In this document: piece by piece, positions 38,839 through 59,543 of the stretch
Layout: each line of letters starts with the position of its first letter
Numbering within the stretch: position 1 is the stretch's first letter
DNA from: an uncultured Acidobacteriota bacterium
GTDB taxonomy: Bacteria; Acidobacteriota; Terriglobia; Bryobacterales; Bryobacteraceae
DNA length: 64,000 nucleotides
Assembly (NCBI GenBank): GCA_963832965.1
Contig: CAWHVW010000002.1
Coordinates: 623,073 to 687,072, forward strand
Direction of reading: 5' to 3'
Translations under genes and position numbers: made by a program
Notes under the pieces: model-generated
What the model was told of the DNA's origin: nothing
Database searches by the model: none
The model's input: the letters and a program-made list of their open reading frames with translations, nothing else

Positions 38839-38861
38839 CCGGCGGGAAACAGGCAAGCGCC

Positions 38862-41800
38862 ATGAAGAATTCAGGAACCTTGGACGGATTGAGCGGTTCG
38901 GAGATCGCGGTGATCGGCATGGCCGGCCGCTTCGCCGGCGCGCCGGACGTCGAAACGTTCTGGACAAATCTGCGGGATGGCGTGGACTCCGTCAGCTTTT
39001 TCACCGACGAGCAGTTGCTCGCCGCGGGCGTCGATCCCGAAGCGCTGCGGAATCCCCGTTACGTCAAAGCCGGTTTCGTGCTCGATGGCATTGACTTGTT
39101 CGACGCCGCCTTCTTCGGATTCAGCCCGAGAGGCGCCGCGGCGATGGACCCGCAACATCGTCTGTTCCTCGAGTGCGTGTGGGAGGCCATCGAAACGGCC
39201 GGGTACGACGCCGAGAGTTACAAGGGCGCCATCAGCGTGTTTGCCGGATCGAGCATGAGCAGTTATCTGTTCAACAACCTCTATGCCAACCCCGAGGCAT
39301 TTGAGCTCGCCGGCATGTATCAGAGCTTTCTTTCCAACAGTCAGGATTCTCTGGCCACGCTCATCGCCTATAAGCTGAATCTGAAAGGCGCCTGCTACAC
39401 CGTTGGGACCTTCTGCTCCACGTCCCTGGTCGCCGTCCACCTGGCATCCCAAAGCCTGCTGAACTTCGAATGCGACATGGCCGTGGCCGGGGGCGTCAGG
39501 GTCGCGGTGCCGCAGAATACCGGCTACTGGTATCAGGATGGTGGCATCGTTTCTCCCGACGGGCATTGCCGGCCGTTTGACGCCAGCGCGCAGGGAGCGG
39601 TCTTCGGCAACGGCGTTGGGGCGGTAGTGCTGAAAAGGCTGAAGGATGCTTTAGCCGATGGCGATTCCATTCAGGCGGTGATCCTCGGCTCCGCCACCAA
39701 CAACGACGGTTCGCTCAAGGTGAGTTACACGGCGCCCAGCGTCGTCGGCCAGTCCGAGGTCATCGTCGAAGCGCTGTCCAACGCCGAGATCCCTCCGGAT
39801 ACCATCAGCTACGTGGAAACCCATGGCACGGGAACCGCCCTGGGGGATCCCACGGAAGTGTCCGCGCTGACGCGCGCGTTTCGCAGCGGGACGCAGAAGA
39901 AAGGTATCTGTGCGATTGGTTCGTTGAAGGCCAACATCGGACACGTGGACGCGGCGGCCGGCGTGGCCGGTCTGATCAAGACCGTGCTCGCGCTCAAGCA
40001 CCAGCAGATTCCTCCCAGCCTGAATTTCCATCAGCCAAACACCAACATCGATTTTGACAACAGCCCGTTCTACGTCAACTCGAAACTTTCCGAATGGAAA
40101 AGCGATGGCCGTCCCCGCCGCGCCGGGGTGAGCTCATTTGGCATCGGAGGCACCAACGCCCATGTAATCCTCCAGGAGGCCCCTCAGGGGGAACCCTCCG
40201 GTCCATCCCGGCCACACCAGCTCCTGGTTCTGTCCGCCAAAACGAATTCCGCCCTGGATGCGGCCACCCGGAATCTGGCTGCGTTTCTGAAGGGCCATCC
40301 GGATCTGAACCTCGCCGATGCCGCCTTTACGCTGCAGACGGGCCGGCGCGCCTTTAACCATCGCCGGGCCATCGTTTGCCACGATGTTGAAGATGCCGTC
40401 TCCGTGCTCGAATCGGCGGATTCCAAACGCATGCCCTCGGCCAACCAGGACAAGAGGAATCCCGGCGTCACCTTCATGTTCTCCGGACAGGGGGCCCAGT
40501 ATGTTGGCATGGGGTCGGAGCTGTATCGAACCGAGCCGGCGTTTCGCGAGGAAGTCGATCGCTGCTCGGAAATACTGAAATCGCATCTCTCGCTCGATAT
40601 CAGGGACGTCCTCTATCCCGATGACGCGGACGCCGAAGAGACCGCTCAAAGGCTGAATCAAACATCCTTGACCCAGCCGGCGTTATTCGTCGTCGAATAC
40701 GCGCTGGCAAAACTGTGGATGTCATGGGGCGTGGTTCCCGCCGATATGGTGGGCCACAGCATCGGAGAATATGTTGCCGCCTGCCTGGCGGGCGTGTTCT
40801 CCCTGGAAGACGCGCTCGCCCTGGTTGCCGCCAGGGGGCGGTTGATGCAAAGCCTCCCCGGTGGCAGCATGCTGGCGGTGCGCCTTGCGGAAACGGCGGT
40901 TCGGCCCTTCCTGGAAGATCACGAACTGTCTCTGGCAGCCATCAACAGTCCTTCTTTGTGCGCCGTGTCGGGGGCGGGAAAAGCGGTCGAAGATTTCCGG
41001 GAGCGTCTGTCCGAAAAGAACGTGGATTGCCGCCGCCTGCAAACTTCCCACGCGTTCCATTCCAGCATGATGGATCCGGTCATCGGCGCATTCACCGATG
41101 AGGTCAGGCGGACCAGAAGGAACCCTCCCCGAATCCCCTTCGTCTCGAATGTGACGGGAACATGGATCACCGCGGACGAAGCGACGGCGCCTGATTATTG
41201 GGCGAAGCACCTTCGCCATACCGTCCGATTCTCCGACGGAGTTCGCGAGTTGTTGAAAGAGCCCCACAGAGTTTTTCTGGAGGTCGGCCCCGGCAACACC
41301 CTCAGCACCCTGACCAAACAACATCTGAACGGCTCGGATCACACCACCGTACTTTCCTCCATCCGCCACCCGCACGAGCAGGAATCGGATGGCGCCTTCA
41401 TATTGAACACGCTCGGCCGGCTCTGGTTGTCCGGCGTGGACGTGGATTGGTCCGGGTTTCACAAGAAGGAGAAACGCCATCGCGTGCTGGTGCCCACATA
41501 TCCATTTGAGCGGAGGCGGTATTGGATCGATCCGGTGGAACCGGTGCGAGGTTATTTCGCCGCCCGCGTGGGCCTGGGCCGGAAGCAGGACAGTCTGCCT
41601 CGCCCCGCTGGCGCGCAGATCGTTGAGGAGGAACTCGCTCCCAGGGACGCAGAGCTGCAAAGCGACTACGTGGCCCCGCAAGCCGGTGCCGAAGAAACGC
41701 TCGCGGGAGTGTGGCGAAAAGTACTCGGCATCGACAAAATCGGCGTGCACGACAATTATTTCGACCTGGGCGGCGATTCCGTGCTGGCGGTTCATTTGTT

Positions 41801-42782
41801 TGCCGAGATCGAGAAGGCATTCCAAACCAAACTGCCCCTCGCCACGCTTTTCGAGGCCCCCACGATCAGTGCGATCGCCCGGATTCTCCGTCGTGAAGCT
41901 CCCGCATCCGGCTGGTCGCCGCTGGTGGCAATTCAGCCGGCCGGCTCCCGCCCTCCCTTCTTTTGCATTCACGGGGCCGGAGGAGGAGTGCTCCTCTATC
42001 GGGACCTTTCGCGGCGCCTCGGTTCCGATCAGCCGTTTTACGGTCTGCAGGCTCAGGGGCAGGATGGCAGTTGCTCCCCGCTCACCAGCATTGAGGACAT
42101 GGCTGCTCTTTACGTGAAGGAAATCCAAAGGGTGCGGCCGCACGGACCGTATTTCCTCGGCGGCTACTGTGCGGGCGGAACCATTGCCTATGAGGTCGCG
42201 CAGCGGCTTCAGGCGGCGGGAGAAGAGGTTGGCCTGCTGGCCATGTTCGATACGTCGAACTGGTGCAAAGTGCCTCGTCTCTCGGCCGGAAGCAAAGGCT
42301 ATCACTTCCTGCAGAAACTGTGGTTTCATGGCGCCAATTTCCTGGCTCTTGATTCGGAAGGAAAGGGCAGGTTCCTTCTGGAGAAGGCCAGAGAACTGCG
42401 CAGCCGGATGCCCATGTGGCGGGCGATGCTGCTGGCGAAGTTCGGCGGGCGCTCGGGCGCCGTCACCTCCGAATCCCGCGTGTTGGGGGAGATCTGGCAG
42501 GCCAATGACCGGGCCTGCGCAAATTATGTTCCCCAACCGTATCCCGGCACGGTCACGGACTTTCGCCCGAGGACGCAGTACCGTGCCCTCAGCAGGCCAG
42601 ACGTGAAATGGGATCAGTTGGCGAAGGGCGGCCAGGACATTGTTGTCCTGCCTGTCTATCCCGCCGGCATGCTGGTGGAGCCCTTCGTCGCGGACCTTGC
42701 CGGCGCTCTCCGAGCGACCATCGACCGGTCTCTTCACAACACACGAATCGCAAATACCGCGGGCCGCAACAACGTCCCGTAA
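38862..42782 (+). CDS. Type I PKS module: KS-AT(malonyl)-ACP-TE (TE with Cys at the nucleophile position)
   Basis: 1306 aa. KS TFCSTSL (Cys 39414..39416), ETHGTGT, NIGHVD. AT FSGQGAQY, GHSIGEY (Ser 40758..40760), HAFHS. ACP LGGDSVL (Ser 41778..41780). TE FFCIHGAGGG, LGGYCAGG (TGT 42168..42170). Confidence 0.9.
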   Translation: MKNSGTLDGLSGSEIAVIGMAGRFAGAPDVETFWTNLRDGVDSVSFFTDEQLLAAGVDPEALRNPRYVKAGFVLDGIDLFDAAFFGFSPRGAAAMDPQHRLFLECVWEAIETAGYDAESYKGAISVFAGSSMSSYLFNNLYANPEAFELAGMYQSFLSNSQDSLATLIAYKLNLKGACYTVGTFCSTSLVAVHLASQSLLNFECDMAVAGGVRVAVPQNTGYWYQDGGIVSPDGHCRPFDASAQGAVFGNGVGAVVLKRLKDALADGDSIQAVILGSATNNDGSLKVSYTAPSVVGQSEVIVEALSNAEIPPDTISYVETHGTGTALGDPTEVSALTRAFRSGTQKKGICAIGSLKANIGHVDAAAGVAGLIKTVLALKHQQIPPSLNFHQPNTNIDFDNSPFYVNSKLSEWKSDGRPRRAGVSSFGIGGTNAHVILQEAPQGEPSGPSRPHQLLVLSAKTNSALDAATRNLAAFLKGHPDLNLADAAFTLQTGRRAFNHRRAIVCHDVEDAVSVLESADSKRMPSANQDKRNPGVTFMFSGQGAQYVGMGSELYRTEPAFREEVDRCSEILKSHLSLDIRDVLYPDDADAEETAQRLNQTSLTQPALFVVEYALAKLWMSWGVVPADMVGHSIGEYVAACLAGVFSLEDALALVAARGRLMQSLPGGSMLAVRLAETAVRPFLEDHELSLAAINSPSLCAVSGAGKAVEDFRERLSEKNVDCRRLQTSHAFHSSMMDPVIGAFTDEVRRTRRNPPRIPFVSNVTGTWITADEATAPDYWAKHLRHTVRFSDGVRELLKEPHRVFLEVGPGNTLSTLTKQHLNGSDHTTVLSSIRHPHEQESDGAFILNTLGRLWLSGVDVDWSGFHKKEKRHRVLVPTYPFERRRYWIDPVEPVRGYFAARVGLGRKQDSLPRPAGAQIVEEELAPRDAELQSDYVAPQAGAEETLAGVWRKVLGIDKIGVHDNYFDLGGDSVLAVHLFAEIEKAFQTKLPLATLFEAPTISAIARILRREAPASGWSPLVAIQPAGSRPPFFCIHGAGGGVLLYRDLSRRLGSDQPFYGLQAQGQDGSCSPLTSIEDMAALYVKEIQRVRPHGPYFLGGYCAGGTIAYEVAQRLQAAGEEVGLLAMFDTSNWCKVPRLSAGSKGYHFLQKLWFHGANFLALDSEGKGRFLLEKARELRSRMPMWRAMLLAKFGGRSGAVTSESRVLGEIWQANDRACANYVPQPYPGTVTDFRPRTQYRALSRPDVKWDQLAKGGQDIVVLPVYPAGMLVEPFVADLAGALRATIDRSLHNTRIANTAGRNNVP

Positions 42783-44001: not shown

Positions 44002-44010
44002 GCTCGGATT

Positions 44011-44039
44011 ACGGAACCGCGACGGTGACGGAGCGGGGA
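44011..44039 (+). repeat. Copy 1 (3' core only) of a dispersed intergenic repeat
   Basis: ACGGAACCGCGACGGTGACGGAGCGGGGA. The same core occurs at 46706..46735 and 48893..48922. Confidence 0.8.
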
Positions 44040-44052
44040 GTTTCCGGTTGTG

Positions 44053-44110: not shown

Positions 44111-45469
44111 ATGAACACAATTTGTCTTTCTGAAGATACGCAAAGAGAAGTAGGATCGAGCCACCTTGAGCAACTGCGGCGAAAGATCGAAACGCGGCAG
44201 GCTCGGGTGGGCGTCGTCGGCCTGGGCTATGTAGGCCTTCCCCTCGCCGTCGAGCTGGCCCATGCCGGATTCTGTGTGACCGGCATCGACATCGATTCCG
44301 CCAAGGTCGCCGCCGTCAATGGAGCCAGGTCCTACGTGCAGGACGTGCCTACTTCGGTGTTGGCGCCGCTCGTTAACGCGGGCAAGATACGGGCCACCAG
44401 CGACTTCGCGGCGATCGCCGAACTGGACACGGTAAACATCGCCGTGCCCACGCCGCTGCGCAAGACCAAAGACCCGGACATGAGCTACATCGTCAATGCG
44501 TGCCAGGAGATCGCCAGCCACTTTCATCCGGGCATGCTGGTAATACTGGAATCGACAACCTATCCGGGCACCACCGATGAGCTGATGCTGCCAATGTTCG
44601 AGCGGCCGGACCTGCGGGTCGGCGAGCACTTCTTTATGTGTTTTTCCCCGGAGCGCGTCGATCCCGGCAACCCGAACTTCCAGACCAGGAACATACCCAA
44701 AGTGGTCGGCGGAATCACACCGGCTTGCACCGAAATCGGAGCGTTGTTCTATAGACAGGCCCTCGAGACAGTTGTCCCGGTCAGCTCCACGCGCGTGGCC
44801 GAGATGGTGAAGCTGCTCGAAAATACCTTCCGCATGATCAACATCGGCCTCGCCAATGAGATTGCCATGATGTGCGACCGTATCGGGGTGAATGTGTGGG
44901 AGGTCATCGATGCCGCCGCCACCAAGCCGTTCGGTTTCATGCCGTTCTATCCCGGTCCGGGGCTGGGCGGTCACTGCATCCCCATCGATCCGTTCTATTT
45001 GTCCTGGAAAACCAAGCAGGCGGGTATTGAGGCCCGGTTCATTGAACTGGCCGGTTACATCAACGGCCAGATGCCGCACTTCGTCGTGGACAAAATCCAG
45101 AACGCGCTCAACGATCATTCGAAGCCGCTCAAGGGCTCCCGTGTCCACCTGCTGGGCGTCGCGTACAAGCGCGACATCGACGATGTGCGCGAATCCCCGG
45201 CCCTCGACATCATCCATCTTCTCGCGAAGCGCGGGGCCGTCGTGAGTTACAGCGATCCATTTGTGTCCAGATTGCGGGGCGAGGGATTGCTGCCTTCCGA
45301 TCTGGAGGCCATCGACCCGGCGAAGGGGTCCGCCGAGGCGGATTGCGCGGTCATCGTCACCGATCACAAGAAATTCGACTATCCGAAGATCGTCGAATGT
45401 GCGCGGCTGATCGTCGATACGCGCAATGCGCTCAAGGGATTCACCTCCGGGAAGATTGTACGCCTCTAG
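44111..45469 (+). CDS. Nucleotide-sugar 6-dehydrogenase (UDP-GlcNAc/UDP-ManNAc dehydrogenase, WbpA/WecC-like)
   Basis: 452 aa. [18 protein letters not shown] (NAD fold), ...[10 protein letters not shown]..., GGHCIPIDP (catalytic Cys). Confidence 0.85.
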
Positions 45470-46554
45470 TGTCCTGTCTCCGAAGTCCGCTGACAAAAGC
45501 GTGCAACCGACGTCAGGATTTCATCGGCCGTCTTCGTCCAGACAAAGGGCCGGGGCGATTCGTTGGTGAGCGATAAATATCTTTTGATGGCCGCTTCCAA
45601 CTCGCGAATGCTGCGGTGAACGCCACGGCGAAGCTGTTTCTCAGTAAGAGCGGCGAACCACCGTTCGACCAGATTGATCCAGGAGGCGCTGGTCGGCGTG
45701 AAGTGCACGTGGAAACGGGGACGTTTGGCCAGCCATGCGCGGATGGCCGCGGTTTTGTGAGTGCCGTAGTTGTCCAGAATCAAATGGACGTCCAGCGACG
45801 CGGGCACTGCCTGCTCGATGGTGTCGAGAAACTTGCGGAATTCCACACTGCGGTGCCGGCGATGGCAGGCGCCGATCACCGTTCCAGTCTGCACATCGAG
45901 CGCGGCAAACAGGGACGTGGTGCCGTGGCGCTTGTAATCGTGACTGCGGCGCTCGGCCTGTCCGGGACGCATCGGCAACAGCGGTTGCGTCCGGTCCAGC
46001 GCCTGAATCTGCGACTTCTCATCGACGCACAGGACCAGTGCGCGGTCCGGAGGATTCATGTACAGTCCAACGATGTCGCGAACCTTATCAATGAACAGCG
46101 GGTCTTTGGAAAGTTTGAACGTCTCGCTGCGATGCGGTTGCAGGGCGAACGCTCGCCAGATGCGGCTGACGGTGCTTCGGCTGAGTCCGCACTGCTTCGC
46201 CAGCGAGCGCGTACTCCAATGCGTGGCGTCACGCGGCAGCGATTCCAGAGTCATGGCCAGCACTCGCTCCACCTCCGCGTCGCTGACCTTGCGCGGTGTC
46301 CCAGGACGAGGCTCATCGAGCAATCCATCGAGGCGCTTTTCGACAAAGCGCGCCCGCCACTTTCCGACCATCTGTTTAGTGACCCGAAACTGATCGGCCA
46401 CCTGGGTGTTGGTCTTGCCGCCGGCACAGGCCAGAATGATCTTCGCACGCAAGGCCAGCGCCTGAGCCGACTTTGGCCGCCGCGCCCACTCCAGCAGGGA
46501 CCGTCGCTCCTCCGGTGTGATCACCAACTCGGGAAGCGGGCGTCCAATTCGCAT
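45466..46554 (-). CDS. IS630-family DDE transposase
   Basis: 362 aa with N-terminal HTH ([23 protein letters not shown]) and DDE_3-like core ([14 protein letters not shown]...[11 protein letters not shown]...[15 protein letters not shown]). Confidence 0.9.
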
Positions 46555-46627
46555 CGCCGTACTCCTTTGTACATGAGATGCAAACCGACCGTCCTGTTAT
46601 TCAGCGGACTTCAGAGACAGGACACTA
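45467..46627 (-). mobile_element. IS630-family insertion sequence with 25-bp terminal inverted repeats and a TA target duplication
   Basis: Left end TA-GTGTCCTGTCTCCGAAGTCCGCTGA (45467..45493). Right end TCAGCGGACTTCAGAGACAGGACAC-TA (46601..46627). IRs match 24/25. One transposase ORF fills the element. Confidence 0.9.
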
Positions 46628-46628
46628 G

Positions 46629-46648
46629 CGGGCTGCTGAGAAAGCCCG
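46629..46648 (+). terminator. Hairpin that would directly follow the dehydrogenase stop if the IS were absent
   Basis: CGGGCT-gctgagaa-AGCCCG. It begins 2 nt after the right end of the IS. Confidence 0.35.
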
Positions 46649-46683
46649 AAAACCGCTTGTTTACACGCGCGGCTCGGAAACGC

Positions 46684-46735
46684 AGCTACGTGTTTGCAGG
46701 TGCTTACCGAACCGCGACGGTGACGGAGCGGGGAC
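46684..46735 (+). repeat. Copy 2 of the dispersed intergenic repeat (52-nt block)
   Basis: AGCTACGTGTTTGCAGGTGCTTACCGAACCGCGACGGTGACGGAGCGGGGAC. 51/52 identical to 48871..48922. Confidence 0.85.
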
Positions 46736-46780
46736 CAGATAGCCTTTTTCAGCATCCTGCTGGAAAGCAAAAGGAGCCCC

Positions 46781-47260
46781 ATGGGACGATGCTCGCTGCT
46801 TCTTCTTGTTACTCTGACGTGGCTGTTCTTCGCGTCAACGGCCAGTGCGCAGTGGCTGGCGGTGTCGTCGTCGGCGGGTTCGCGAGGCGATAGCGTTGCC
46901 GTTGAAATCTCTGTGGATACTTCCACGGGAACGGCGCCGGTTGCTCTGACCTGGGAGACGGTCTTTCCAGATGATCTTCTTCAGGTGGAAGGGAACGGTC
47001 CGGTTGCCGGCAGCGCGGCGCGGGAGTCGGGTAAGGTGCTCACTTGTTCTTCGCCCAAGCCCTACTCGTATGTTTGCATTCTGGTGGGAGGGCAGAAGCC
47101 AATCGGAAGCGGGCTCCTCGCAACGTTCCATTTCAAGATTCGGCGCAACGCTCACCGTGGGCCGGCCACGGTAAGGGCTCAACGAGGTGAGGCAGCCGCG
47201 GTAGACGCCTTGACAAAGCTGTCTCTTGCGGATGCCGAGGGAACTATTACGATCCGCTAA
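46781..47260 (+). CDS. Small secreted cohesin-like domain protein
   Basis: 159 aa. Signal peptide LLLLVTLTWLFFASTASA. Then GSRGDSVAVEISVDTSTGTAPVALTWETVFPDDLLQVEGNGPVAG...GKVLTCSS...YVCILVGG...IGSGLLATFHFKI. The pattern is shared with the N-terminal domains of 55097..56716 and 57230..58888. Confidence 0.5.
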   Translation: MGRCSLLLLVTLTWLFFASTASAQWLAVSSSAGSRGDSVAVEISVDTSTGTAPVALTWETVFPDDLLQVEGNGPVAGSAARESGKVLTCSSPKPYSYVCILVGGQKPIGSGLLATFHFKIRRNAHRGPATVRAQRGEAAAVDALTKLSLADAEGTITIR

Positions 47261-47272
47261 TTCGAAACTGGA

Positions 47273-47815
47273 TTACGGAGAGGGAATGATCGCCGCGGGA
47301 GTCGGAGTCGAATAACCGCTCTCATTTCCGTTGACATCCACCGACGTCGCTACGTAATAGTAAGTCTGTCCCGCCGCGACCGTGGTGTCGGCCCAGCTGG
47401 CTCCTGCAATCAGTGCGGAGTTCATTTTCGTATACGGTCCCGTGGAAGCTGCTCCCCGGTAGATGTTGTATCCAACGACGCTCGACGTGCTGGATACCCA
47501 GTTCAGCGTGACCTTGTGGCCATTGTAAATGGAACACGGCTGGCCCAGTGACGCATTCACCACGCGCTGAACCGTTATGACGGTACACGTGAGCGCTCCT
47601 TCCACGTTGGCGGTGCATGGAGTGGTGCCAAGAGCCATATTCGTCGCCAGGGTCACGTCCGTGGCGTTGACTACCCCGTCCTGGTTCAGATCGCATGCGC
47701 TGAACTGCGCCCAGGCTGGCCCGGAGGCACACAACAGGACGGCCAGCGCGACTCCGTGGAATCCGCGGGTCTCGCGCTTTCTCGCTGCAAGGCGGATATG
47801 GCGAATGAACTCCAT
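47273..47815 (-). CDS. Secreted protein with one dockerin-type Ca-binding repeat followed by a fibronectin type III domain
   Basis: ORF 47273..47905, start taken at MEFIRH (AGGAGG 8 nt upstream). Signal peptide ..VALAVLLCASGPAWA. DLNQDGVVNATDVTLATNMAL (47657..47692 codes D-x-N-x-D-G-x-x-N-x-x-D). Fn3 region VTLNWVSSTSSVVGYNIYRG...AGQTYYYVATSVDVNGNESGYS. Confidence 0.65.
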   Translation of the reverse strand: MEFIRHIRLAARKRETRGFHGVALAVLLCASGPAWAQFSACDLNQDGVVNATDVTLATNMALGTTPCTANVEGALTCTVITVQRVVNASLGQPCSIYNGHKVTLNWVSSTSSVVGYNIYRGAASTGPYTKMNSALIAGASWADTTVAAGQTYYYVATSVDVNGNESGYSTPTPAAIIPSP

Positions 47816-47855
47816 TGGTGACACCTCCTGGAATTTCGGATTCAGAGCTGTAACC

Positions 47856-47871
47856 CAGCAATTCTCTTGCC
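47856..47871 (-). promoter_or_regulatory. Candidate sigma-54 (-24/-12) promoter for the dockerin-Fn3 gene
   Basis: Minus strand reads CGGCAA-gagaa-TTGCT. GG and GC have the canonical 10-nt separation. It lies about 40 nt upstream of the ATG at 47815. Confidence 0.45.
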
Positions 47872-48008
47872 GACCTTCAATGCTTCTCACAGCATAGTAC
47901 CTCATTCACGTCATCGGCAAGCGGGCCAGGCCTCTTTAGCAACCAGGTGGAAAGGTCCAGGCGAGTAAGGTTGATCCGCGCATATCCCACTTGGCTTCTT
48001 TGGCTTAC

Positions 48009-48064
48009 GCTGCCGGCATGATCGCCAGCCTGATGTCCAATTGCGGCCCGCATATGCCGGCAGC
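48009..48064. promoter_or_regulatory. Pair of identical palindromes (TGCCGGCA) forming an 11-bp perfect inverted repeat. Candidate enhancer-binding-protein site or hairpin
   Basis: GCTGCCGGCAT (48009..48019) and ATGCCGGCAGC (48054..48064) are exact reverse complements. Palindrome centres are 44 bp apart and lie between the two divergent sigma-54-type promoters. Confidence 0.4.
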
Positions 48065-48284
48065 AGGCCGCTATGAGGGCGGAAGTCGCGCGGTCAGCTC
48101 GCGGGCTCTTTCCTCAACCAGCCGGGAAGCCCGAGGAATCCGGCACACTGCACAATCTCTTCGAAGGTCGCTGTTGTAAGCTGTTGATATAAAAACCATT
48201 ACCGATCAAGAACAGGTCGGTGCCATGATCGTTTCGAGCAAAGCCGGAGTCGGCAATGTCTCGAAATCCAGTCCGTCAGAGACT

Positions 48285-48300
48285 TGGCATGAGGGTTGCT
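48285..48300 (+). promoter_or_regulatory. Sigma-54 (-24/-12) promoter for the PilZ gene
   Basis: TGGCAT-gaggg-TTGCT (preceded by T) against consensus TGGCAC-N5-TTGCW, with exact spacing. It lies 120 nt upstream of ATG 48421. Confidence 0.65.
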
Positions 48301-48420
48301 CCCGGTTCGATCTTCCAGGAGCCAAAGTACGCTCAAGTTGTGTAAAAATTACCGTCTGTCGCAGTTCTTACAATGGCAAGCACCGTGCTGCGTTGACTTT
48401 GTGATCCAGGGGACTTTCAT

Positions 48421-48810
48421 ATGTTTATGCCAATGGTGGTGACCGGCGACGAGCCGGATCGTCGTCGGCGTCCGCGGTTGAGGTTGGCGTATCAGGTCCG
48501 GCTCTATCAACTTGGCGAGGAAGTGGTGCGCGTAGAGACGAAGACGGAGGACCTCAGTTGTGAGGGCTTCTTTTGTATCTCCGAACGCGGCTTCACTCCG
48601 CACGAGACCATCGAGTGCGAACTCGTAATCCCCAGCGACAAGCCAGGCCAGCCCGCTGAGCACGACATGGTCCTGCGCTGTCGCGCCGAGGTCGTCCGCG
48701 TCGTGCCGCAAGGCCGTGGGACTACCTTCGGAGTAGCCTGCAGGTTCGCCGACTACACGGTCTTCCGGCAGATCGCCGTCAAAGGCCTGATGGTGGAATG
48801 CTCCATCTGA
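48421..48810 (+). CDS. Single-domain PilZ (c-di-GMP receptor) protein
   Basis: 129 aa. RRRRPR (RxxxR) and DLSCEG (D-x-S-x-x-G) motifs at canonical spacing. Confidence 0.7.
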   Translation: MFMPMVVTGDEPDRRRRPRLRLAYQVRLYQLGEEVVRVETKTEDLSCEGFFCISERGFTPHETIECELVIPSDKPGQPAEHDMVLRCRAEVVRVVPQGRGTTFGVACRFADYTVFRQIAVKGLMVECSI

Positions 48811-48870
48811 CCCGGCGTCGCGGGTGCGTTGGATCTGGAGCGCTTAACAGGCTGATGAAAAAGCCCGCGT

Positions 48871-48922
48871 AGCTACGTGTTTGCAGGTGGTTACCGAACC
48901 GCGACGGTGACGGAGCGGGGAC
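48871..48922 (+). repeat. Copy 3 of the dispersed intergenic repeat (52-nt block)
   Basis: AGCTACGTGTTTGCAGGTGGTTACCGAACCGCGACGGTGACGGAGCGGGGAC. Preceded by a degenerate copy of the CGGGCT/AGCCCG hairpin module (48849..48867). Confidence 0.85.
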
Positions 48923-48934
48923 TTAAGCATCCTG

Positions 48935-49540
48935 TCAAGCGCTCTCAAGTTGCAAAGGCGCCAAAATCGGCTTGCTGGAACCTTCCATGGCCCCTTCCGG
49001 TACTCTCCTGAATTCCGTGCGGGGCGCGCTCACAGGCCGTACCCAGGTGCGATCGACCTCCGCGCAAACAGATCGCTGCAGCAGGTGAATCGACACCACC
49101 AGCCGGAACGTCTTCTTGATTTCCTGAACAATTCCCTCCACGCCCGCCAGTGGCCCGCGCTCGATAAGCACCGTCTGTCCCGTTCCCAGGAATGGCCACG
49201 GCGCTACCAGCAGACCCGACCCGATCATCCTGCGAACCGCGTCGATCTCATAGTCCGGTACCGCCGACGGCCCCTTCCCGAAGCCGACCAGACCCACCGC
49301 GCCCGGAATCGTCAGGACCGGCAAGCGGTCCTCCGGGTTCAGCCGGCAGAAAATGTAACCAGGAAACAGGGGCAGGTCGATTTGCTTCTTGCGGTCAGAC
49401 CATTGGCGCTCGGTCCGGTACGTGGGCGAGAACTCTTCGCAGCCGCGGTCGCGCAGGTGGACGCCCGCAATCCGTTCGTAGTTGGAACGTACTCGTAAGG
49501 CAAACCACGGAAATGTGGCGCTCACTCCCGGCTGACCCAT
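48935..49540 (-). CDS. NusG-paralogue (RfaH/UpxY-like) transcription antiterminator, intact
   Basis: ORF 48935..49636. WFALRVRSNYERIAGVHLRDRGCEEFSPTY...DLPLFPGYIFCRLNPEDRLPVLTIPGAVGLVGFG, then a KOW-like GQTVLIERGPLAGVEGIVQEI. Start taken at MGQPG. Confidence 0.75.
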   Translation of the reverse strand: MGQPGVSATFPWFALRVRSNYERIAGVHLRDRGCEEFSPTYRTERQWSDRKKQIDLPLFPGYIFCRLNPEDRLPVLTIPGAVGLVGFGKGPSAVPDYEIDAVRRMIGSGLLVAPWPFLGTGQTVLIERGPLAGVEGIVQEIKKTFRLVVSIHLLQRSVCAEVDRTWVRPVSAPRTEFRRVPEGAMEGSSKPILAPLQLESA

Positions 49541-49747
49541 CCGGGTCTGGGAAATCACACTCACGGTTCCCCTCCGCACAGGCAAATCACTCTCCAGTCC
49601 AGCATCACTAATCCGTTGTCGGTTGTCAATGGACACTCCGGTCTATGCGCGTTTCCTTTACGGTCTATTAACAACGGCAAGGGCGTGGTATTCGACTGCC
49701 CCCTCTCACCCGCCGGTCGCCGTCCAGATTCCTCGAAGACGAAGCAG

Positions 49748-51187
49748 TTACGCCGAGAGCGAATCCCGGTTATCCCGTTCCTCGATGGACAGCTTCTTCA
49801 TCTTGTACAGGAACGCCTTGTAATCAATCTTCAACAGCGCCGCGGCCTGCTTTCGGTTCCATCGCGTACACCGCAGCGCCTCCAGAATCGCCCCTGCCTC
49901 GGCCTCTTCCTTCGCCCGTGACGCGTCCTCCAGAACCGAGCTCGGAGCGGCTTTCTTTCGAGGCGGTCCGGCGTTTATTTCCGGTTCGGGACCTGATGCA
50001 TCGCTCTTGTTCAGGCGACCCATCAGCATGTCCAATTCGTTGATAACGAGGTTCGGGTCGCGCAGGACGATAAGCTTTCTGACGATGTTCTCCAACTGGC
50101 GGATATTTCCCGGCCACGAAAATGTCAGAAATGCGTTCTTTAGCGCCGGCGTCATTACCACTCGCGGTACGTCCGGCGAGCTATGCTGCGCGATGAGAAA
50201 CTCCGCGAGGTCCAGGATGTCTTCCTTTCGCTCGCGCAGGGAAGGCATCGTAAGCGTGAAGATGTTTATCCGATAGTACAGGTCCTCGCGGAACGTGCGG
50301 TCGCGGATGGCCTCCAGAAGGTCCCGATGAGTCGCCGCGATCACCCGTATTTGTACACGGATGACGTCCGTTCCACCCACCCGCCGAAATTCCTGGTCCT
50401 GAAGAACCTGCAGAAGCTTCGCCTGAAGCCGGATGTCCATGTCCCCGATCTCGTCGAGCAGGATCGTTCCGCCGTCCGCCAGCTCGAAGACCCCGGGCTT
50501 TTTCTGGAAGGCACCGGTGAACGCTCCCCGCTCGTAGCCGAACAACTCGCTTTCGATCAGTTCGGACGGGACAGCCGCGCAGTTCAATTTTACGAACGGT
50601 CTGGCGGCGCGGCGCGACAACCGGTGCAAATGGCGCGCAAGAACCTCCTTGCCGGCGCCGGTCTCTCCTTGGATCAGAACCGGGACATCGCTGGCCGCCA
50701 CCTTCGGCAGACAGGACTTCAAAACACTCATTACCGGGTTCTTGCCCCAAAAAATCCCTTGCCCCAGCTCTGCAAACGACTCCTGCGCCGCCTCCGCCTG
50801 ATCCTGCCTGGGATCGAGAGCCCGGTCCACCGCCCGGCACAGGTCCTCGTGATCCACCGGCTTCGCCAGAAAATCGGTCGCGCCGCTCTTGATTGCCTGG
50901 ACCACGTTCAGAGGCGAAGACATCCCCGACAGCATGATCACCGGCAAGTCGGAATTGATCTCCCGTATGTCGCGCAATGTCTCCCACCCATCCTTGTTGG
51001 GCATCATGATGTCGAGTACAACCGCGGACGCAAAGCCACCTGAACGCAAATAGGTTATGGCTTCCTCCCCGTCAGCCGCCAGGTACACGTCATAGCCCCG
51101 GCAACGGAGGGTAACCTCCAGATAATCCCTGACTTCCGCGTCGTCCTCACCGACGAGGATAGTTCTCCGTCTTACTTCAGAATTCAA
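49748..51187 (-). CDS. Sigma-54-dependent response regulator (NtrC family: REC - AAA+ - Fis-type HTH)
   Basis: 479 aa. REC ILVGEDDAEV...VVLDIMMPNKDG. AAA+ GETGAGKEVLARHLH, ESELFGYERGAFTGA (GAFTGA), RVIAATHRDL. HTH NRKQAAALLKIDYKAFLYKMKKL. Confidence 0.9.
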   Translation of the reverse strand: MNSEVRRRTILVGEDDAEVRDYLEVTLRCRGYDVYLAADGEEAITYLRSGGFASAVVLDIMMPNKDGWETLRDIREINSDLPVIMLSGMSSPLNVVQAIKSGATDFLAKPVDHEDLCRAVDRALDPRQDQAEAAQESFAELGQGIFWGKNPVMSVLKSCLPKVAASDVPVLIQGETGAGKEVLARHLHRLSRRAARPFVKLNCAAVPSELIESELFGYERGAFTGAFQKKPGVFELADGGTILLDEIGDMDIRLQAKLLQVLQDQEFRRVGGTDVIRVQIRVIAATHRDLLEAIRDRTFREDLYYRINIFTLTMPSLRERKEDILDLAEFLIAQHSSPDVPRVVMTPALKNAFLTFSWPGNIRQLENIVRKLIVLRDPNLVINELDMLMGRLNKSDASGPEPEINAGPPRKKAAPSSVLEDASRAKEEAEAGAILEALRCTRWNRKQAAALLKIDYKAFLYKMKKLSIEERDNRDSLSA

Positions 51188-51214: not shown

Positions 51215-52489
51215 CTACGGCGATGCGGAACTCGGAACATTCCCCGGAGACTCCGTTCGCCGGAACGGGAGCACGAATGAGAACATCGCTCCGTTCTCGT
51301 GGGAATCGGCCCAGATATGCCCTTCATGCCGGCTCATGATGTGCCGGCAGATGGCCAGGCCCAGACCGCCGCCCGACCGGTCGTGCGGCCCGGAGTACGA
51401 GGTGTACTCTTCAAAAATAAGGTTCAGTCGATCGGCGGGAACGCCAGGGCCCGTGTCCTTTATATCGATTCGGTAGGAGTTGGGCGAGGAAACGCGGTTT
51501 ACACGCCGCTCCCCCGGCGCGCTGCCCCCCGACAGGAAGCGGCGCTCCCAGAAGTAGGGGTATCCCAGCACCTCGATAGCTCCTCCCCGATGGGTGAACT
51601 TGCACGAGTTGTCTAATAGGTTTAACAAAACCTGCTCGATCTGAGACGCCTCAAAGCAGAGCGGATGGGCCGGAGGAACGACGTTCTCCGCACGGATCGT
51701 GATGCGTTTTTCCCGGGCCAGCGGAAGAACTTCGTGAACCGCCTGCTTGATCCGCTCGCAAATGTCCCCTTCGCAGAGGTTCGGCCGGGGATTCACCCGC
51801 GCTCCGATACTCAGATCGAACATGGCGGAAGCCATGCGCGAAATGCGCTTGCTGCTGTGCTGCATGCGCTGCAGAGCTTCCTTTTGCTGATCGTTCAGGG
51901 GACCCAGTTCGCCGCCGGCGAGGAGGCCGCAAAATCCCGATAGAGCCGTCAGGGGCGCTCGAAAATCGTGCACCGCGCGCGCAATGAAGTTGGTGCGCTG
52001 TTGGTCGTACTCCTGAAGTCGCAGGTTGGCGTGCAGCAGCCGCTGCAGAAGTTCGTCGCGGCTTGCGCGCAACGTGCCTACGTCCGGCGAAGCAGCGTCG
52101 TCGGTGTAGGGAACCACCGAAGTGAGAAACGCCTGAAGAACCGCCCGGGTGACCGGCTTCAGTAGAACATTGCCTTCCGCCGCGGGCGCGCTCCGAAGTA
52201 AGGATTCCACCTGCGCCGGGGGAACCAGATACAGGATCCGGCTGTACCCGAATTCACAGCCTGCCGGTATGGGCCCCGCGGATTCGTAATCCCACAAACA
52301 AACTTCCGTGCTCGGAGGCTCGTCCGTGCCCCCGCGAATCTCCAGATCGCACGGTGCATCGCCTAACTCGCGCAGGACTTCACGGCAGAGTGCCACCAGA
52401 CTAAGATCGGCGGAGACCACGGAAAGCGTGACCCCGGACCCGATCAATATCACATAGTTCCCCGTCGCAACCTGTTGCGAACTGGCCAT
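51215..52489 (-). CDS. Soluble histidine kinase (HisKA + HATPase_c) with an unassigned N-terminal domain
   Basis: 424 aa. H-box VHDFRAPLTALSG, N-box LLDNSCKFT, G-boxes DTGPGV and GGLGLAI. No TM segment seen. Confidence 0.85.
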   Translation of the reverse strand: MASSQQVATGNYVILIGSGVTLSVVSADLSLVALCREVLRELGDAPCDLEIRGGTDEPPSTEVCLWDYESAGPIPAGCEFGYSRILYLVPPAQVESLLRSAPAAEGNVLLKPVTRAVLQAFLTSVVPYTDDAASPDVGTLRASRDELLQRLLHANLRLQEYDQQRTNFIARAVHDFRAPLTALSGFCGLLAGGELGPLNDQQKEALQRMQHSSKRISRMASAMFDLSIGARVNPRPNLCEGDICERIKQAVHEVLPLAREKRITIRAENVVPPAHPLCFEASQIEQVLLNLLDNSCKFTHRGGAIEVLGYPYFWERRFLSGGSAPGERRVNRVSSPNSYRIDIKDTGPGVPADRLNLIFEEYTSYSGPHDRSGGGLGLAICRHIMSRHEGHIWADSHENGAMFSFVLPFRRTESPGNVPSSASP

Positions 52490-53216
52490 ATCGTATCAAC
52501 GTCACACCGGAGTCTCAATCACCGATTGAACACATATCGCTCGCCCTCTCGACTGGGCCAGCCCGGCGTCCGTTTCCCCCCGTCAAAAGCTTCCAAGTCT
52601 GTTTCGCCCACCCCCACCCCGGCGCTATTTCGATCATAACGTTAGAGTTCGCTCGAGACTCCCCGGCGACTCCCAGGCATAGGGTCGAAAAAAATACCTT
52701 GTTGTCACAAAGATCGGCAACACGTCCCTTTTTCTTTAAGGGCACAGGTCAGCATAGACTCTCAGTTACCTGACTGTCAATGAATAGAATGCAATAGTTT
52801 TGTACCCAGACCCAAAGAATAGTACTAGTACAGTTGTCCTTTTTCAGGAGCGATTTTACACGCTCGAGTGCCACCTCGGGGTAGCCCCGCCGGCTATTGC
52901 CTTTGAAGCCGTGGCCCCCGGCGTCGTGCCGCATCTCCGGCGCAACTCCATTGAACTCTTCAGATAAGACTTCTCATTCACGCGGGCCTCGGCCATCGTC
53001 CGGGCCGTGCCTGGCCCGCCCGTCATACCCCGGCGGAATGCTCCGCATTGAACCGAAAAAGTTTGCACTGCTGACCAAACCGGCACCGAAGCAGTCCTCT
53101 TCCGCCCGCCCCTTCAACGTCCCGGTCCTGGGACTCGTTACCCCCGCCTTCCTACTGACGCGCTCATAGTCGCCCCACAGAATTGGGATCGAATGATCGG
53201 TTCCCAGGAATCTGTG

Positions 53217-53888
53217 ATGCGACTATGCATTTGCTTTCTGACCGGGTTGGCTTTGTGCATACCAGCGTGCGCAAGTCCTATCGATTCGTCGAGTTTTTCC
53301 AGTAGCGCAACGCTCATCAACTTCGACGACCTCACCGGAGGAGATTGCAATCTATGCGGTCCTTCCGTGACCGACCAGTATGCCGCTCTCGGCGTCGAGT
53401 TCAACGACCCGAGCTTCCCCGGGGATGACACCGCGGATACCAATCTAACTCCCCTCATACCCGGCGCCTCCCTTCCGAATGCGTTGTACGTCTACCAGGG
53501 CGGACTAATTGGCCAGGCTCCCGCCGCGCCGTTTCAGATTCTGTTTTCGGTTCCCGTCACCATGGCCGGCTTCGTCTACGGCATCAGCGACGATTCGTTC
53601 CTCGAAGTGGATGTCTACGGACCCGGCAACACGCTGATCGAAAGTCTGGACTTCGTGGGAAATACGGCGCCGGGCCTCGGCCTGGCGGGATTCGCGGGCG
53701 TCCAGGAATCCACCGACATCACCAGTCTGGAGGTCTCGTCCCACCCCGATTCCGACCCGTGCCGGACTTTCAGCTTCGACGTTGACAACGTACAGTTCGA
53801 GGCGAGTCCCGTGCCGGAACCATCCACGCTTCTGCTCATCGCCACGGGCCTCATTGGCCTCGCTCTGGGACGCCGCCGGCCGCGCTAA
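53217..53888 (+). CDS. PEP-CTERM sorting-signal protein
   Basis: ORF 53193..53888. Signal peptide MRLCICFLTGLALCIPACA. C-terminus VPEPSTLLLIATGLIGLALGRRRPR (PEP motif, TM helix, basic tail). Confidence 0.85.
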   Translation: MRLCICFLTGLALCIPACASPIDSSSFSSSATLINFDDLTGGDCNLCGPSVTDQYAALGVEFNDPSFPGDDTADTNLTPLIPGASLPNALYVYQGGLIGQAPAAPFQILFSVPVTMAGFVYGISDDSFLEVDVYGPGNTLIESLDFVGNTAPGLGLAGFAGVQESTDITSLEVSSHPDSDPCRTFSFDVDNVQFEASPVPEPSTLLLIATGLIGLALGRRRPR

Positions 53889-54035: not shown

Positions 54036-55073
54036 GTGATGTACGACAAATTCTTTGCACTGGCGAAGGTGCCGTTTTCGTTGGTTCCGGACCCGGATTG
54101 CGTCCACCTGACGGTTCAGCACGCCGACGTGATCAGTGGTTTGACCTTCGGAGTTCTCGAGCGCAAAGGGTACGTGGTCCTTACAGGCGAAGCCGGTCTC
54201 GGTAAGACCACAGCGCTAAGAGCACTGTCTCAGCTCCTGACCGAATCCAACGTCCAGTCGAGTATCATCTCCACGCCAACGCTCAGCTCCCCGGAGTTTC
54301 TCGAGCTGGCGCTTCTCAACTTCGGGTTCAAGGATATCCCCGCCAGCAAGGCCTTGCGTCTGAAGTTGCTGGAAGAGTTCGTGGTTCGTTCCGATGCCGA
54401 AGGACGAATCGTCGCACTGATCGTTGATGAGGCCCACCAGTTAGGTCCGGAGCTGCTTGAGGAGATCCGCCTGCTCGGCAACTTCGAGAGCAATGATCGC
54501 AAGCTCCTGCAAATCGTCCTGGCGGGTCAGAACGAGCTCAACAGCCGGCTGAATCTCCCGGAGCTGTGGCAGTTGAAGCAACGAATCACCATCTGGCTTT
54601 CGCTTCGGCGCCTGGATCGCGAAGCGGTCGAGGAATACATCCGGTTCCGCTGGGCCATAGCCGGCGGCGAAGATACCATCCCCTTCAGCGGCGCCGCGCT
54701 CGATGGGATAGCCAGTTGGTCGAATGGCATACCGCGGCTTATCAATACCGTCTGCGACAATGCTTTGCTGATCGCCTTGTCGAGGCGAACCCGCGCGGTG
54801 GACGTTGAAATGGTTCGTGAAGCCTGCGAAGGCCTCTCCCTGCCTACGCCCGTAATTGCCGCAAGTTCGCCCTCTTTTGCCGGGGCCAGGCCACTGCTGC
54901 GCCCTGGAGAACAAATCTCGTCGGAGCCATCCACCCAGGCGGATCCCGGGACACCGCCCAACGGCTGGGCTGCTTCCAGACCTTCGCTGATCAAGCGCTG
55001 GCTGCGGCTCGCCGATTCACAGCGCCAGCCTGCCCGGGCCACGTCCAACATACTCTTACTAAGAGACCCGTAA
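54036..55073 (+). CDS. ExeA-like AAA ATPase (PEP-CTERM-locus putative secretion ATPase type)
   Basis: 345 aa. FFALAKVPFSLVPDPDCVHL...VVLTGEAGLGKTTALRAL (Walker A), ALIVDEAHQL (Walker B). Confidence 0.75.
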   Translation: MMYDKFFALAKVPFSLVPDPDCVHLTVQHADVISGLTFGVLERKGYVVLTGEAGLGKTTALRALSQLLTESNVQSSIISTPTLSSPEFLELALLNFGFKDIPASKALRLKLLEEFVVRSDAEGRIVALIVDEAHQLGPELLEEIRLLGNFESNDRKLLQIVLAGQNELNSRLNLPELWQLKQRITIWLSLRRLDREAVEEYIRFRWAIAGGEDTIPFSGAALDGIASWSNGIPRLINTVCDNALLIALSRRTRAVDVEMVREACEGLSLPTPVIAASSPSFAGARPLLRPGEQISSEPSTQADPGTPPNGWAASRPSLIKRWLRLADSQRQPARATSNILLLRDP

Positions 55074-56716: not shown

Positions 56717-57229
56717 TCGAGCGTCACCTCGAATGGCCCGCGTCAGCGCTGTCAAGTTAATGAACATAGTCAACCACGCTCCTGGCAATCGTCTCTGCCG
56801 CCACTGTCTTAGTCTGAAAGTTACGAATCGCCCGGTCTGAAACTACTAGTACTATCGGAATGTTAGCCCATTACCATTCGAGGAAGCGATTGGGCGAAGC
56901 CAATAGAGCTTTCGCCAAAAACACTTACTACTCTCGGCATGAAATGCCCGATCAGGCAGTCCTGCTATGGCCTTTAAACTGAATAGTACGCTCAGGATGG
57001 TATTCTCTAAACATTTTTTGCCGGCCCCAATGGTACTTTGGTTTCCGGCACCCGAGGAAATCGCATCCCAAAGTACCCCGGCAGCGGCCGTCGACGCCGT
57101 ATTTTGCGGTCGTTGGGCGAGTAAATCGCGAGCTAACTTCGGCTCGGTACTAGTACTTTCTCAATCATTCTGAAATGCACCGCGCATCTACCCGATCCCG
57201 TGCGTGCCGGGGTTTCGCGAACGAAGCTT

Positions 57230-59385: not shown

Positions 59386-59461
<76 letters not shown>

Positions 59462-59468
59462 GTGATCG

Positions 59469-59543
59469 TGGAGCGGGAGACGGGAATCGAACCCGCAACC
59501 AACAGCTTGGAAGGCTGTGACTCTACCATTGAGTTACTCCCGC
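59469..59543 (-). tRNA. tRNA-Gly (anticodon TCC), CCA encoded
   Basis: GCGGGAGTAACTCAATGGTAGAGTCACAGCCTTCCAAGCTGTTGGTTGCGGGTTCGATTCCCGTCTCCCGCTCCA. Anticodon loop CTTCCAA, T-loop TTCGATT. Confidence 0.9.

Follow-up and report, generated by a model that had tools for sequence, protein, structure and literature searches.

A candidate non-cellulosomal cohesin–dockerin system of XrtA/PEP-CTERM-type exopolysaccharide loci in Bryobacterales and other Terriglobia

What is a cohesin-like protein doing beside a dockerin protein among the exopolysaccharide (EPS) genes of an acidobacterium? The question is raised by a 64,000-nt stretch of DNA from an uncultured Bryobacteraceae bacterium (contig CAWHVW010000002.1, positions 623,073 to 687,072; hereafter the window), in which a gene for a small secreted cohesin-like protein converges on a gene for a secreted protein with a dockerin module and an Fn3 domain. 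Cohesin–dockerin pairing is among the strongest known protein–protein interactions and is a standard tool for designer enzyme complexes; to our knowledge, its roles outside cellulosomes are mostly unknown. A first reading of the letters alone (the sequence-only reading) had proposed an extracellular docking system tied to the polysaccharide matrix. Our results suggest, with a probability of about 0.6, that the pair represents a cohesin–dockerin system which is non-cellulosomal, specific to its lineage and part of the XrtA/PEP-CTERM EPS loci found in Bryobacterales and other Terriglobia. The genes and modules concerned are listed here.

46781..47260, plus strand: stand-alone cohesin protein, 159 aa, with a signal peptide (…ASTASA/QW) and then one cohesin module, residues ~24-159.
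47273..47815, minus strand: dockerin-Fn3 protein, 180 aa, with a signal peptide (…GPAWA/QF), a 4-Cys dockerin module and an Fn3 domain.
47522..47704, minus strand: dockerin module, residues 38-98, two repeats.
47291..47521, minus strand: Fn3 domain, residues ~99-175.
55097..56788, minus strand: secreted protein with an N-terminal cohesin and three ~120-aa repeats, 563 aa, likely start 56716.
56222..56641, minus strand: cohesin of the 563-aa protein, residues ~50-189; full-length Pfam Cohesin match, 23.7 bits, E 6e-5.
57230..58888, minus strand: secreted protein with an N-terminal cohesin and four Ig-like repeats, 552 aa.
58373..58804, minus strand: cohesin of the 552-aa protein, residues ~29-172; full-length Pfam Cohesin match, 17.3 bits.

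True cohesin modules make up the N-termini of the 563-aa and 552-aa proteins and, signal peptide aside, the 159-aa protein. AlphaFold2 (AF2) gave a confident all-β model of the 159-aa protein (pLDDT 89.2, pTM 0.80) with the nine-stranded β-sandwich (jelly-roll) fold of cohesins. When this model was compared with the PDB using Foldseek, 50 of the 50 top matches were cohesins (TM 0.7-0.84, E to 7.8e-11), among them ScaG, an autonomous cohesin, and the non-cellulosomal examples from A. fulgidus and C. perfringens. A profile made from 16 cohesin-like sequences reached the cohesin of C. cellulolyticum CipC (PDB 2vn5) over the whole length at E 5.8e-8. The single cohesin-like domain assigned by the sequence-only reading is therefore upheld, as is its claim that the two larger proteins begin with the same domain: they matched a custom cohesin hidden Markov model (HMM) at 1e-38 (563 aa) and 8e-40 (552 aa), and the motif could be aligned across all three proteins with 15 invariant columns. 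The fit of the small protein to the shared motif is less exact (ALTWE for GLQWT).

A single-sequence protein search with the 159-aa cohesin returned one real homologue. The idea that it is an orphan was rejected when inspection of six-frame translations showed orthologues that are uncalled or truncated in public annotation; the protein looks like an orphan in protein databases because public gene callers miss its orthologues. These share 48-60% identity with it (loci L006, L007 and L086), and lie near or beside a dockerin-Fn3 gene in L004/L006, where the two genes are convergent with a 35-nt gap, and in L001/L007. Two of them (L001 10817..11344 and L004 8542..9168, both on the minus strand) are uncalled or appear as a 52-aa fragment in the public predictions for metagenome-assembled genomes (MAGs).

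Beyond their cohesins the larger proteins differ. The Ig-like repeats of the 552-aa protein gave a weak Invasin_D3 match. The C-terminal ~120-aa repeats of the 563-aa protein had no Pfam or PDB sequence match; the three copies, at 55097..56230 on the minus strand, share the pattern F-x-P-x-x-PCR-[VI]-x-DTR … D-[IL]-x-GYFAP, and the repeat recurs at the C-terminus of a 1682-aa cohesin protein of a relative (L004 1780..6828).

The reading frame of the dockerin-Fn3 gene extends to 47905 (210 aa). The start at 47815 (MEF..) is preferred because it is supported by a ribosome-binding site, GGAGG, 8 nt upstream. The gene converges on that of the 159-aa cohesin and a gap of 12 nt separates their stop codons (47261..47272), a layout that the sequence-only reading had drawn correctly. 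Within the module, DLNQDGVVNATD, encoded at 47657..47692 on the minus strand, is the sole dockerin-type loop in the six frames of the window. It forms the canonical Ca loop of repeat 1, D42-x-N-x-D-G-x-x-N-x-x-D53, with the five ligands D42, N44, D46, N50 and D53. The loop had been predicted to stand alone, and this part does not hold. Both hhalign and the family alignment revealed the two tandem ~22-residue loop-helix segments of a full dockerin, residues 41-66 and 67-94 being an internal duplication with a 28-aa offset. The ligand positions of repeat 2 are degenerate (N70, E72, A74, T78 and T81, with the position-12 acid lost). Its helix, VQRVxNAxxG, is invariant across the family alignment, and four cysteines (C41, C67, C77 and C94) are invariant in the dockerin-Fn3 family.

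For comparison, six reference dockerins were taken from proteins of the same cohesin family, each of which scores 27-41.6 bits in Pfam over both repeats. The module aligned with these by hhalign over 55 columns across both repeats (98.8% probability, E 1.4e-16), and one of the six (P0133) carries the same C-x9-C pair spanning its second loop. Because the alignment covers both repeats and P0133 shares the C-x9-C pair, we regard the module as a dockerin homologue whose cysteines have apparently taken the place of the second Ca site. Judged by its sequence, it is a complete but atypical dockerin with one canonical Ca loop and four invariant cysteines, which probably form two disulfides. Among the 99 close family members with the 4-Cys pattern, 84 have a canonical loop 1, and sub-threshold Dockerin_1 matches were found in 9 of 24 family members.

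The rest of the mature protein is an Fn3 domain, as had been proposed. Searched against the PDB, the family profile found a C. thermocellum Fn3-like domain (3mpc, E 4.6e-14) and the Fn3 domain of CtXyl5A (5g56, E 2.9e-12), and Foldseek matched the model of the protein to Fn3 β-sandwich folds; the Pfam fn3 model itself did not match the protein. Some family members carry the database tag PF25833, which was not recovered in our Pfam scan. The C-terminus, A-x-[IV]-P-x-P-COOH (window 47276..47293), is nearly invariant in the family, P178 being invariant and A175 and P180 present in ≥90%, and may be a processing or recognition signal.

The dockerin-Fn3 family comprises 859 or more clusters of homologues, ~150-250 aa long (E ≤ 1e-3, a lower bound), with a median length of 177 aa among the 120 best members. 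Full-length copies in species-representative genomes came nearly all from Bryobacterales, Bryobacteraceae, Solibacter, Paludibaculum or Terriglobia records; two records under other phylum names were Treponemataceae (L016) and Candidatus Doudnabacteria (L076). The closest relatives of the window are Bryobacterales/Terriglobia-type MAGs with identities of 66% and 61% and a UDP-glucose dehydrogenase that is 83% identical, which suggests that the window comes from this lineage too. The same arrangement is present in a cultured species, Paludibaculum fermentans.

Linkage was surveyed with an iterated HMM, built from the window cohesins, against six-frame ORFs of 42 full-length dockerin-Fn3 loci. 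A cohesin-like ORF was the commonest single neighbour of the dockerin-Fn3 gene. It lay ≤10 kb away in 26 of the 42 loci; in 15 it was directly beside that gene (≤600 nt), with each of the four relative orientations represented. Sixteen of 44 cohesin ORFs (36%) fell in the nearest 7% of flank DNA (binomial p 2e-8, indicative since the loci are related), and two loci, L042 and L043, contained co-directional cohesin/dockerin-Fn3 pairs with a gap of 47-55 nt. The reverse look-up, starting from cohesins P0124 and P0126, found a dockerin-Fn3 homologue in both loci, ~1.6 kb from P0124 and ~5 kb from P0126; in the latter a second cohesin-like ORF lies ~0.7 kb from the dockerin-Fn3 gene. The copy beside P0124 (L086 3878..4354, minus strand) is interrupted by an in-frame stop in its second loop, and gene prediction splits it into two ~91-aa genes; it is either a pseudogene or an assembly error. 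Core XrtA/EPS markers were found ≤10 kb away in 26 of the 42 loci. The co-occurrence that the sequence-only reading had asked about was thus found: in many genomes cohesin genes lie preferentially beside dockerin-Fn3 genes, among exosortase/EPS genes.

The marker neighbours in the 42 loci were a ~750-aa TPR protein (18 loci), exosortase (12), a LamG-VanZ membrane protein (12), chain-length determinant (11), tyrosine kinase (11) and ATPase (8). The frequency of the first five fits another explanation, in which the dockerin-Fn3 protein is an accessory of EPS assembly or export, for instance a partner, in the periplasm or outer membrane, of the exosortase, of the PrsT-like TPR protein or of the chain-length determinant and its tyrosine kinase, and the cohesins are unrelated cargo. 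A Sec signal without further sorting signal is compatible with such a place in the periplasm. However, we think it unlikely, as cohesin outranks all of these neighbours (26 loci), the 64-kb window yielded no exosortase or TPR gene, and the dockerin-Fn3 tandem tags unrelated cargo. Its use as a C-terminal tag on varied cargo is how a targeting module would behave, rather than a machinery subunit.

This cargo is of several kinds. In one class the tandem follows a ~550-aa N-terminal domain with a sub-threshold, 35-residue match to Pfam PQQ_2/BamB (L021 8327..10435, L022 3441..5528 and L031 8276..10435), and in a second class a ~230-aa domain of no known type (L023 9209..10447, L024 9170..10423 and L032 9251..10429). 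A further protein (L040 9435..11033) has four He_PIG Ig repeats between dockerin and Fn3. In the fusion proteins the tandem is always C-terminal.

Fusions were also found on the cohesin side. The cohesin clade has 7,243 representatives at E ≤ 1e-3 (50% identity clustering), and 36 of the 155 family sequences examined contain two to eight cohesins per protein. One protein, P0136 (999 aa, from a 19-kb JGI metagenome contig), has the order Coh-Doc4Cys-Coh-Doc4Cys-Coh-Doc4Cys-Coh. Its dockerins are of the 4-Cys subtype of the dockerin-Fn3 family (HMM E to 3.5e-17), and by its domain order P0136 could polymerise with itself head to tail. Seven other cohesin-family members contain canonical dockerins; the Pfam-passing dockerins of the lineage have a repeat offset of ~29-31 aa. 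Both fusion patterns fit what one expects, from domain content, of a docking tag and its receptor, and together with gene adjacency the fusions suggest docking.

If the proteins do dock, the dockerin of the Fn3 protein would bind, after Sec export, the cohesins of co-encoded proteins, contact probably being made through the invariant second helix of the dockerin (VQRVxNA). Calcium in loop 1 and the disulfides would stabilise the dockerin fold. Docking would couple Fn3 to secreted proteins rich in Ig repeats, and in relatives the other cargo domains on the dockerin-Fn3 tag would be coupled likewise, so that the complex would contribute to the protein fraction of the EPS matrix or of the cell envelope. 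For the stand-alone cohesin, the expected role would be that of a monovalent partner: an adaptor, cap or shuttle. Expression would be governed by the regulators of the locus, namely a σ54 two-component pair, an UpxY antiterminator and a PilZ protein that is predicted to bind c-di-GMP.

Several results weigh against this docking system. Every window module missed its Pfam cut-off, so that the HMM check proposed by the sequence-only reading was answered only in part: full-length Cohesin matches and first-repeat Dockerin_1 matches were obtained, all sub-threshold, and fn3 gave none. The 159-aa protein scored 12.9 bits against the curated threshold of 24.1 for Cohesin (PF00963), the 563-aa and 552-aa cohesins (23.7 and 17.3 bits) fell short of the same value, and the dockerin module reached 20.5-21.5 bits, over the first repeat only, against the Dockerin_1 (PF00404) cut-off of 22.9. 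Cohesin homology is supported despite the missed cut-off because the family profile reaches solved cohesins at E 5.8e-8. In the dockerin, the Ca ligands expected in both loops at positions 1, 3, 5, 9 and 12 are absent from loop 2, and loop 1 is clearly lost in ~7 of the 99 4-Cys family members (~7%); what the family conserves may therefore be something other than Ca-dependent docking. The AF2 model of the dockerin-Fn3 protein has a pLDDT of 61.6, residues 71-98 falling below 50, and is no guide to disulfide or helix geometry. In a diderm the Sec signal peptides prove export no further than the periplasm, and the cohesin and dockerin proteins checked have no PEP-CTERM anchor. The pair is not co-transcribed in the window, since its genes are convergent. 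Finally, 16 of the 42 loci have no cohesin ≤10 kb away, several of those contigs being short, and the binomial p overstates the evidence because the loci are phylogenetically non-independent.

Many of these points would be explained if the proteins were co-located but independent components of the envelope or matrix. The cohesin-like sandwiches would then be adhesin or stalk domains, or partners of two-Ca dockerins encoded elsewhere, the 4-Cys module would be a small structural domain stabilised by Ca and disulfides, or would bind polysaccharide or another protein, and adjacency would reflect shared regulation inside EPS islands. The degenerate loop 2 and the occasional loss of loop 1 make such a non-binding explanation a serious possibility. 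The sub-threshold Pfam scores, the loci that lack a nearby cohesin and the convergent, non-operonic pair of the window point the same way, and the canonical two-loop dockerins within the same cohesin family could be the true partners. Nevertheless, we judge it less probable than docking, although it is the chief rival and likelier than a role in the export machinery. Independence does not readily account for the fine-scale enrichment of cohesin ORFs next to dockerin-Fn3 genes in four orientations, for the closely spaced co-directional pairs of L042 and L043, for the fusion in P0136 of this dockerin subtype with this cohesin clade, or for the invariance of dockerin helix 3.

A further point against a working pair lies upstream of the small cohesin, where two more features are relevant.

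44111..45469: UDP-glucose dehydrogenase gene, its 3' end abutted by the IS630 element.
45463..46631, minus strand: IS630-family insertion sequence, with 31-nt inverted repeats at 45463-45493 and 46601-46631.

The insertion sequence is intact, its 362-aa transposase scoring 284 bits with NF033545. It sits at the 3' end of the dehydrogenase gene, which it parts from the small cohesin, and its near end lies 150 nt upstream of the cohesin start. In a related locus (L007) the small cohesin gene follows ~20 nt downstream of the dehydrogenase gene with no insertion sequence between them. The local pair might therefore be a decaying remnant, in which the insertion cut the cohesin from a dehydrogenase operon and left it unexpressed or non-functional here. 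The intact inverted repeats so close to the cohesin, the gene order of L007, the in-frame stop of the L086 dockerin-Fn3 copy and the failure to find a σ70-like promoter in a scan of 46500..48950 are in keeping with decay. We consider it highly improbable all the same, since neither ORF is disrupted and both keep their signal peptides and every invariant residue, two other cohesin proteins are still available as partners, and the promoter scan used a crude consensus method.

Assignment of the proposed docking system to EPS synthesis draws on the rest of the window, which is an XrtA/PEP-CTERM-type EPS locus with glycosyltransferases, a sugar transferase and deacetylases. XrtA families are represented by a chain-length determinant, tyrosine kinase, ATPase and amidotransferase, which mark the system. 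TIGR03007 scored 273 bits against a cut-off of 279, and TIGR03015, TIGR03018 and TIGR03108 were the best matches, under their equivalog cut-offs. Two of the marker genes are given here.

53193..53888, plus strand: PEP-CTERM protein (Pfam PEP-CTERM 29.8 bits against 20.7; NCBIfam PEP-CTERM families too).
54036..55073, plus strand: XrtA/PEP-CTERM system-associated ATPase (TIGR03015, E 1e-66).

A tblastn search of the 64-kb window with the exosortase of a relative found nothing, and the TPR gene was likewise undetected there. The exosortase may lie beyond the window, because it is ≤10 kb from the orthologous gene in 12 of 42 relatives. XrtA/PEP-CTERM exosortase EPS systems, for which the four TIGR families above are markers, were reportedly described by Haft and co-workers in 2006. 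Like them the window has the markers, a PEP-CTERM protein, a σ54 response regulator and a histidine kinase; unlike them it has no detectable exosortase within 64 kb, although orthologous dockerin-Fn3 genes adjoin exosortase and PrsT-like TPR genes. We know of no description of cohesin or dockerin proteins as components of this system.

How does the candidate system compare with known cohesin–dockerin pairs? It would operate in the manner of a cellulosomal or C. perfringens-type pair. With the cellulosomal type I pairs (C. cellulolyticum CipC, 2vn5/1g1k; C. thermocellum, 1ohz/1aoh) it shares the cohesin β-sandwich (profile E 5.8e-8, TM 0.7-0.8) and a dockerin of two loop-helix repeats with a canonical first loop, and its nearest solved Fn3 domains include that of the cellulosomal enzyme CtXyl5A (5g56). 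In contrast to those pairs, the loop 2 ligands are lost, four cysteines are invariant and the genes belong to a diderm acidobacterium, in which they lie in a locus for EPS biosynthesis. The repeat offset in cellulosomal dockerins is also longer than the 28 aa seen here. No scaffoldin with a carbohydrate-binding module (CBM) is present and no dockerin is joined to a glycoside hydrolase; indeed, neither a glycoside hydrolase nor a CBM domain was found on any cohesin or dockerin protein of the window and the 42 related loci. Without CBM scaffoldin or glycoside hydrolases this is not a cellulosome, and the non-cellulosomal context claimed by the sequence-only reading stands.

The secreted ScaG (CohG) of Ruminococcus flavefaciens (4n2o, 4wkz) consists, like the 159-aa protein, essentially of one cohesin. 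Its TM is lower (~0.55-0.65), and ScaG works in a Gram-positive cellulosome with X-Doc modules as partners. Closer structural matches included the non-cellulosomal cohesins of A. fulgidus (2xdh) and of the C. perfringens toxin complex (2jh2, 2w1n; also 2vo8), and in 2w1n a cohesin is likewise combined with Fn3. In those systems the modules are found on glycoside hydrolases, toxins or isolated archaeal proteins, whereas here a minimal dockerin-Fn3 family is tied to EPS loci. Outside cellulosomes, cohesin and dockerin modules have been recorded from every domain of life (Peer et al. 2009, as cited in PMC6030884 and PMC8542988). A full-text literature search, which did not cover Peer et al. 2009, found no paper that connects a dockerin to PEP-CTERM or exosortase, nor any account of such a cohesin–dockerin system in Acidobacteria.

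What appears to be new is the fusion to Fn3 of a Cys-stapled dockerin with a single Ca site, its conservation as a minimal protein and its tie to exosortase EPS loci. Because the pairing recurs across relatives, it suggests that the 'plug and socket' of the cellulose machine may be used here to build cell matrix. The large, conserved and previously unannotated dockerin-Fn3 family defined here is linked by neighbourhood and fusion to a cohesin clade and to EPS loci. It offers concrete candidate partners for asking how protein is organised in a PEP-CTERM-type EPS matrix and what such loci do besides polysaccharide synthesis, and a redox- or Ca-dependent mini-dockerin could serve as an orthogonal assembly tag. 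A bolder and more tentative proposal, possible rather than probable, is a 'matrixosome', in which the exosortase-type biofilm matrix of abundant soil Acidobacteria (Bryobacterales and other Terriglobia) would be built partly by a dedicated cohesin–dockerin code. The Cys-stapled single-Ca dockerin-Fn3 would be a universal tag that plugs cargo, or bare Fn3 spacers, into the cohesins of Ig-repeat proteins and of self-polymerising Coh-Doc chains, all switched by σ54 and c-di-GMP. If true, the matrixosome would be analogous to the cellulosome but structural, not degradative.

The genes that might regulate such a system lie between the pair and the larger cohesin proteins.

48285..48300, plus strand: σ54-type -24/-12 element TGGCATGAGGGTTGCT, ~120 nt upstream of the PilZ ATG, 11/12 positions.
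48421..48810, plus strand: stand-alone PilZ protein, 129 aa (Pfam PilZ 37.3 bits against 22.5), divergent from dockerin-Fn3.
48935..49636, minus strand: UpxY-family NusG-like antiterminator (NF033644, 103.8 bits against 100).
49748..51187, minus strand: σ54-dependent response regulator of NtrC/PEP-CTERM-box type (TIGR01818, 386 bits; TIGR02915 PEP_resp_reg, 334 bits; both under their equivalog cut-offs).
51215..52489, minus strand: sensor histidine kinase beside the σ54 activator.

The EPS/PEP-CTERM neighbourhood with PilZ, σ54 activator and antiterminator, as first described, was thus recovered. The PilZ protein has the motifs RRRPR (RxxxR) and DLSCEG (DxSxxG) of its domain and is predicted to bind c-di-GMP. 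Its arrangement divergent from the dockerin-Fn3 gene was also seen in L004/L006, L007 and L023.

The sequence-only reading also took PilZ to be driven by σ54. When the window was scanned for the σ54 consensus (GG-N10-GC with TGGCAC-N5-TTGCW), TGGCATGAGGGTTGCT was the best match, the window-wide count of 9 not being above shuffles (mean 5.2, maximum 10). In three loci (L007, L013 and L014) the PilZ homologue is preceded by a similar site, at -116 to -147. Alignment of the regions upstream of PilZ showed no overall conservation, and only the position of the σ54-like sites recurs. A σ54 promoter for PilZ is plausible on this pattern. The same was not conserved upstream of dockerin-Fn3 genes, where a σ54 promoter was rejected (hits in 4 of 42 loci, compared with 2 of 42 for the control strand); a weak site, CGGCAAGAGAATTGCT at 47857-47872, is not claimed as a promoter because of this lack of enrichment. 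The crude consensus scan of 46500-48950 for promoters and terminators found nothing above shuffles.

The remaining observations concern other parts of the window. A second UpxY/NusG-like region (3849..4326, plus strand), with matches in two frames and apparently frameshifted, lies just upstream of the sugar-transferase gene with which the EPS cluster begins. Inside the EPS cluster, 22418..24214 and 29028..42782 encode an FkbH-domain protein, a nonribosomal peptide synthetase (NRPS; A-T-C-A-T, 1745 aa) and two type I polyketide synthases (KS-AT-KR-ACP, 1529 aa; KS-AT-…-carrier, 1306 aa), which may point to a polysaccharide decorated with a lipid or polyketide-peptide, or else to a separate product. 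An intergenic repeat (…ACGTGTTTGCAGGTGNTTACCGAACCGCGACGGTGACGGAGCGGGGAC), a conserved stretch of ~50 nt, occurs three times around the cohesin/dockerin pair, on the plus strand (44010..44040, 46705..46735 and 48892..48922). It showed no significant fold (z -0.57) and no Rfam match and was absent from all 87 of 87 related loci, and it was treated as genome-specific and unrelated to the cohesin/dockerin finding. The Rfam scan of the window yielded two tRNAs only. These are tRNA-Thr(TGT) and tRNA-Gly(TCC), in tandem at 59386..59543 on the minus strand, beyond the last cohesin gene and before genes of an Isc Fe-S cluster, and the pair marks the end of the EPS/cohesin region.

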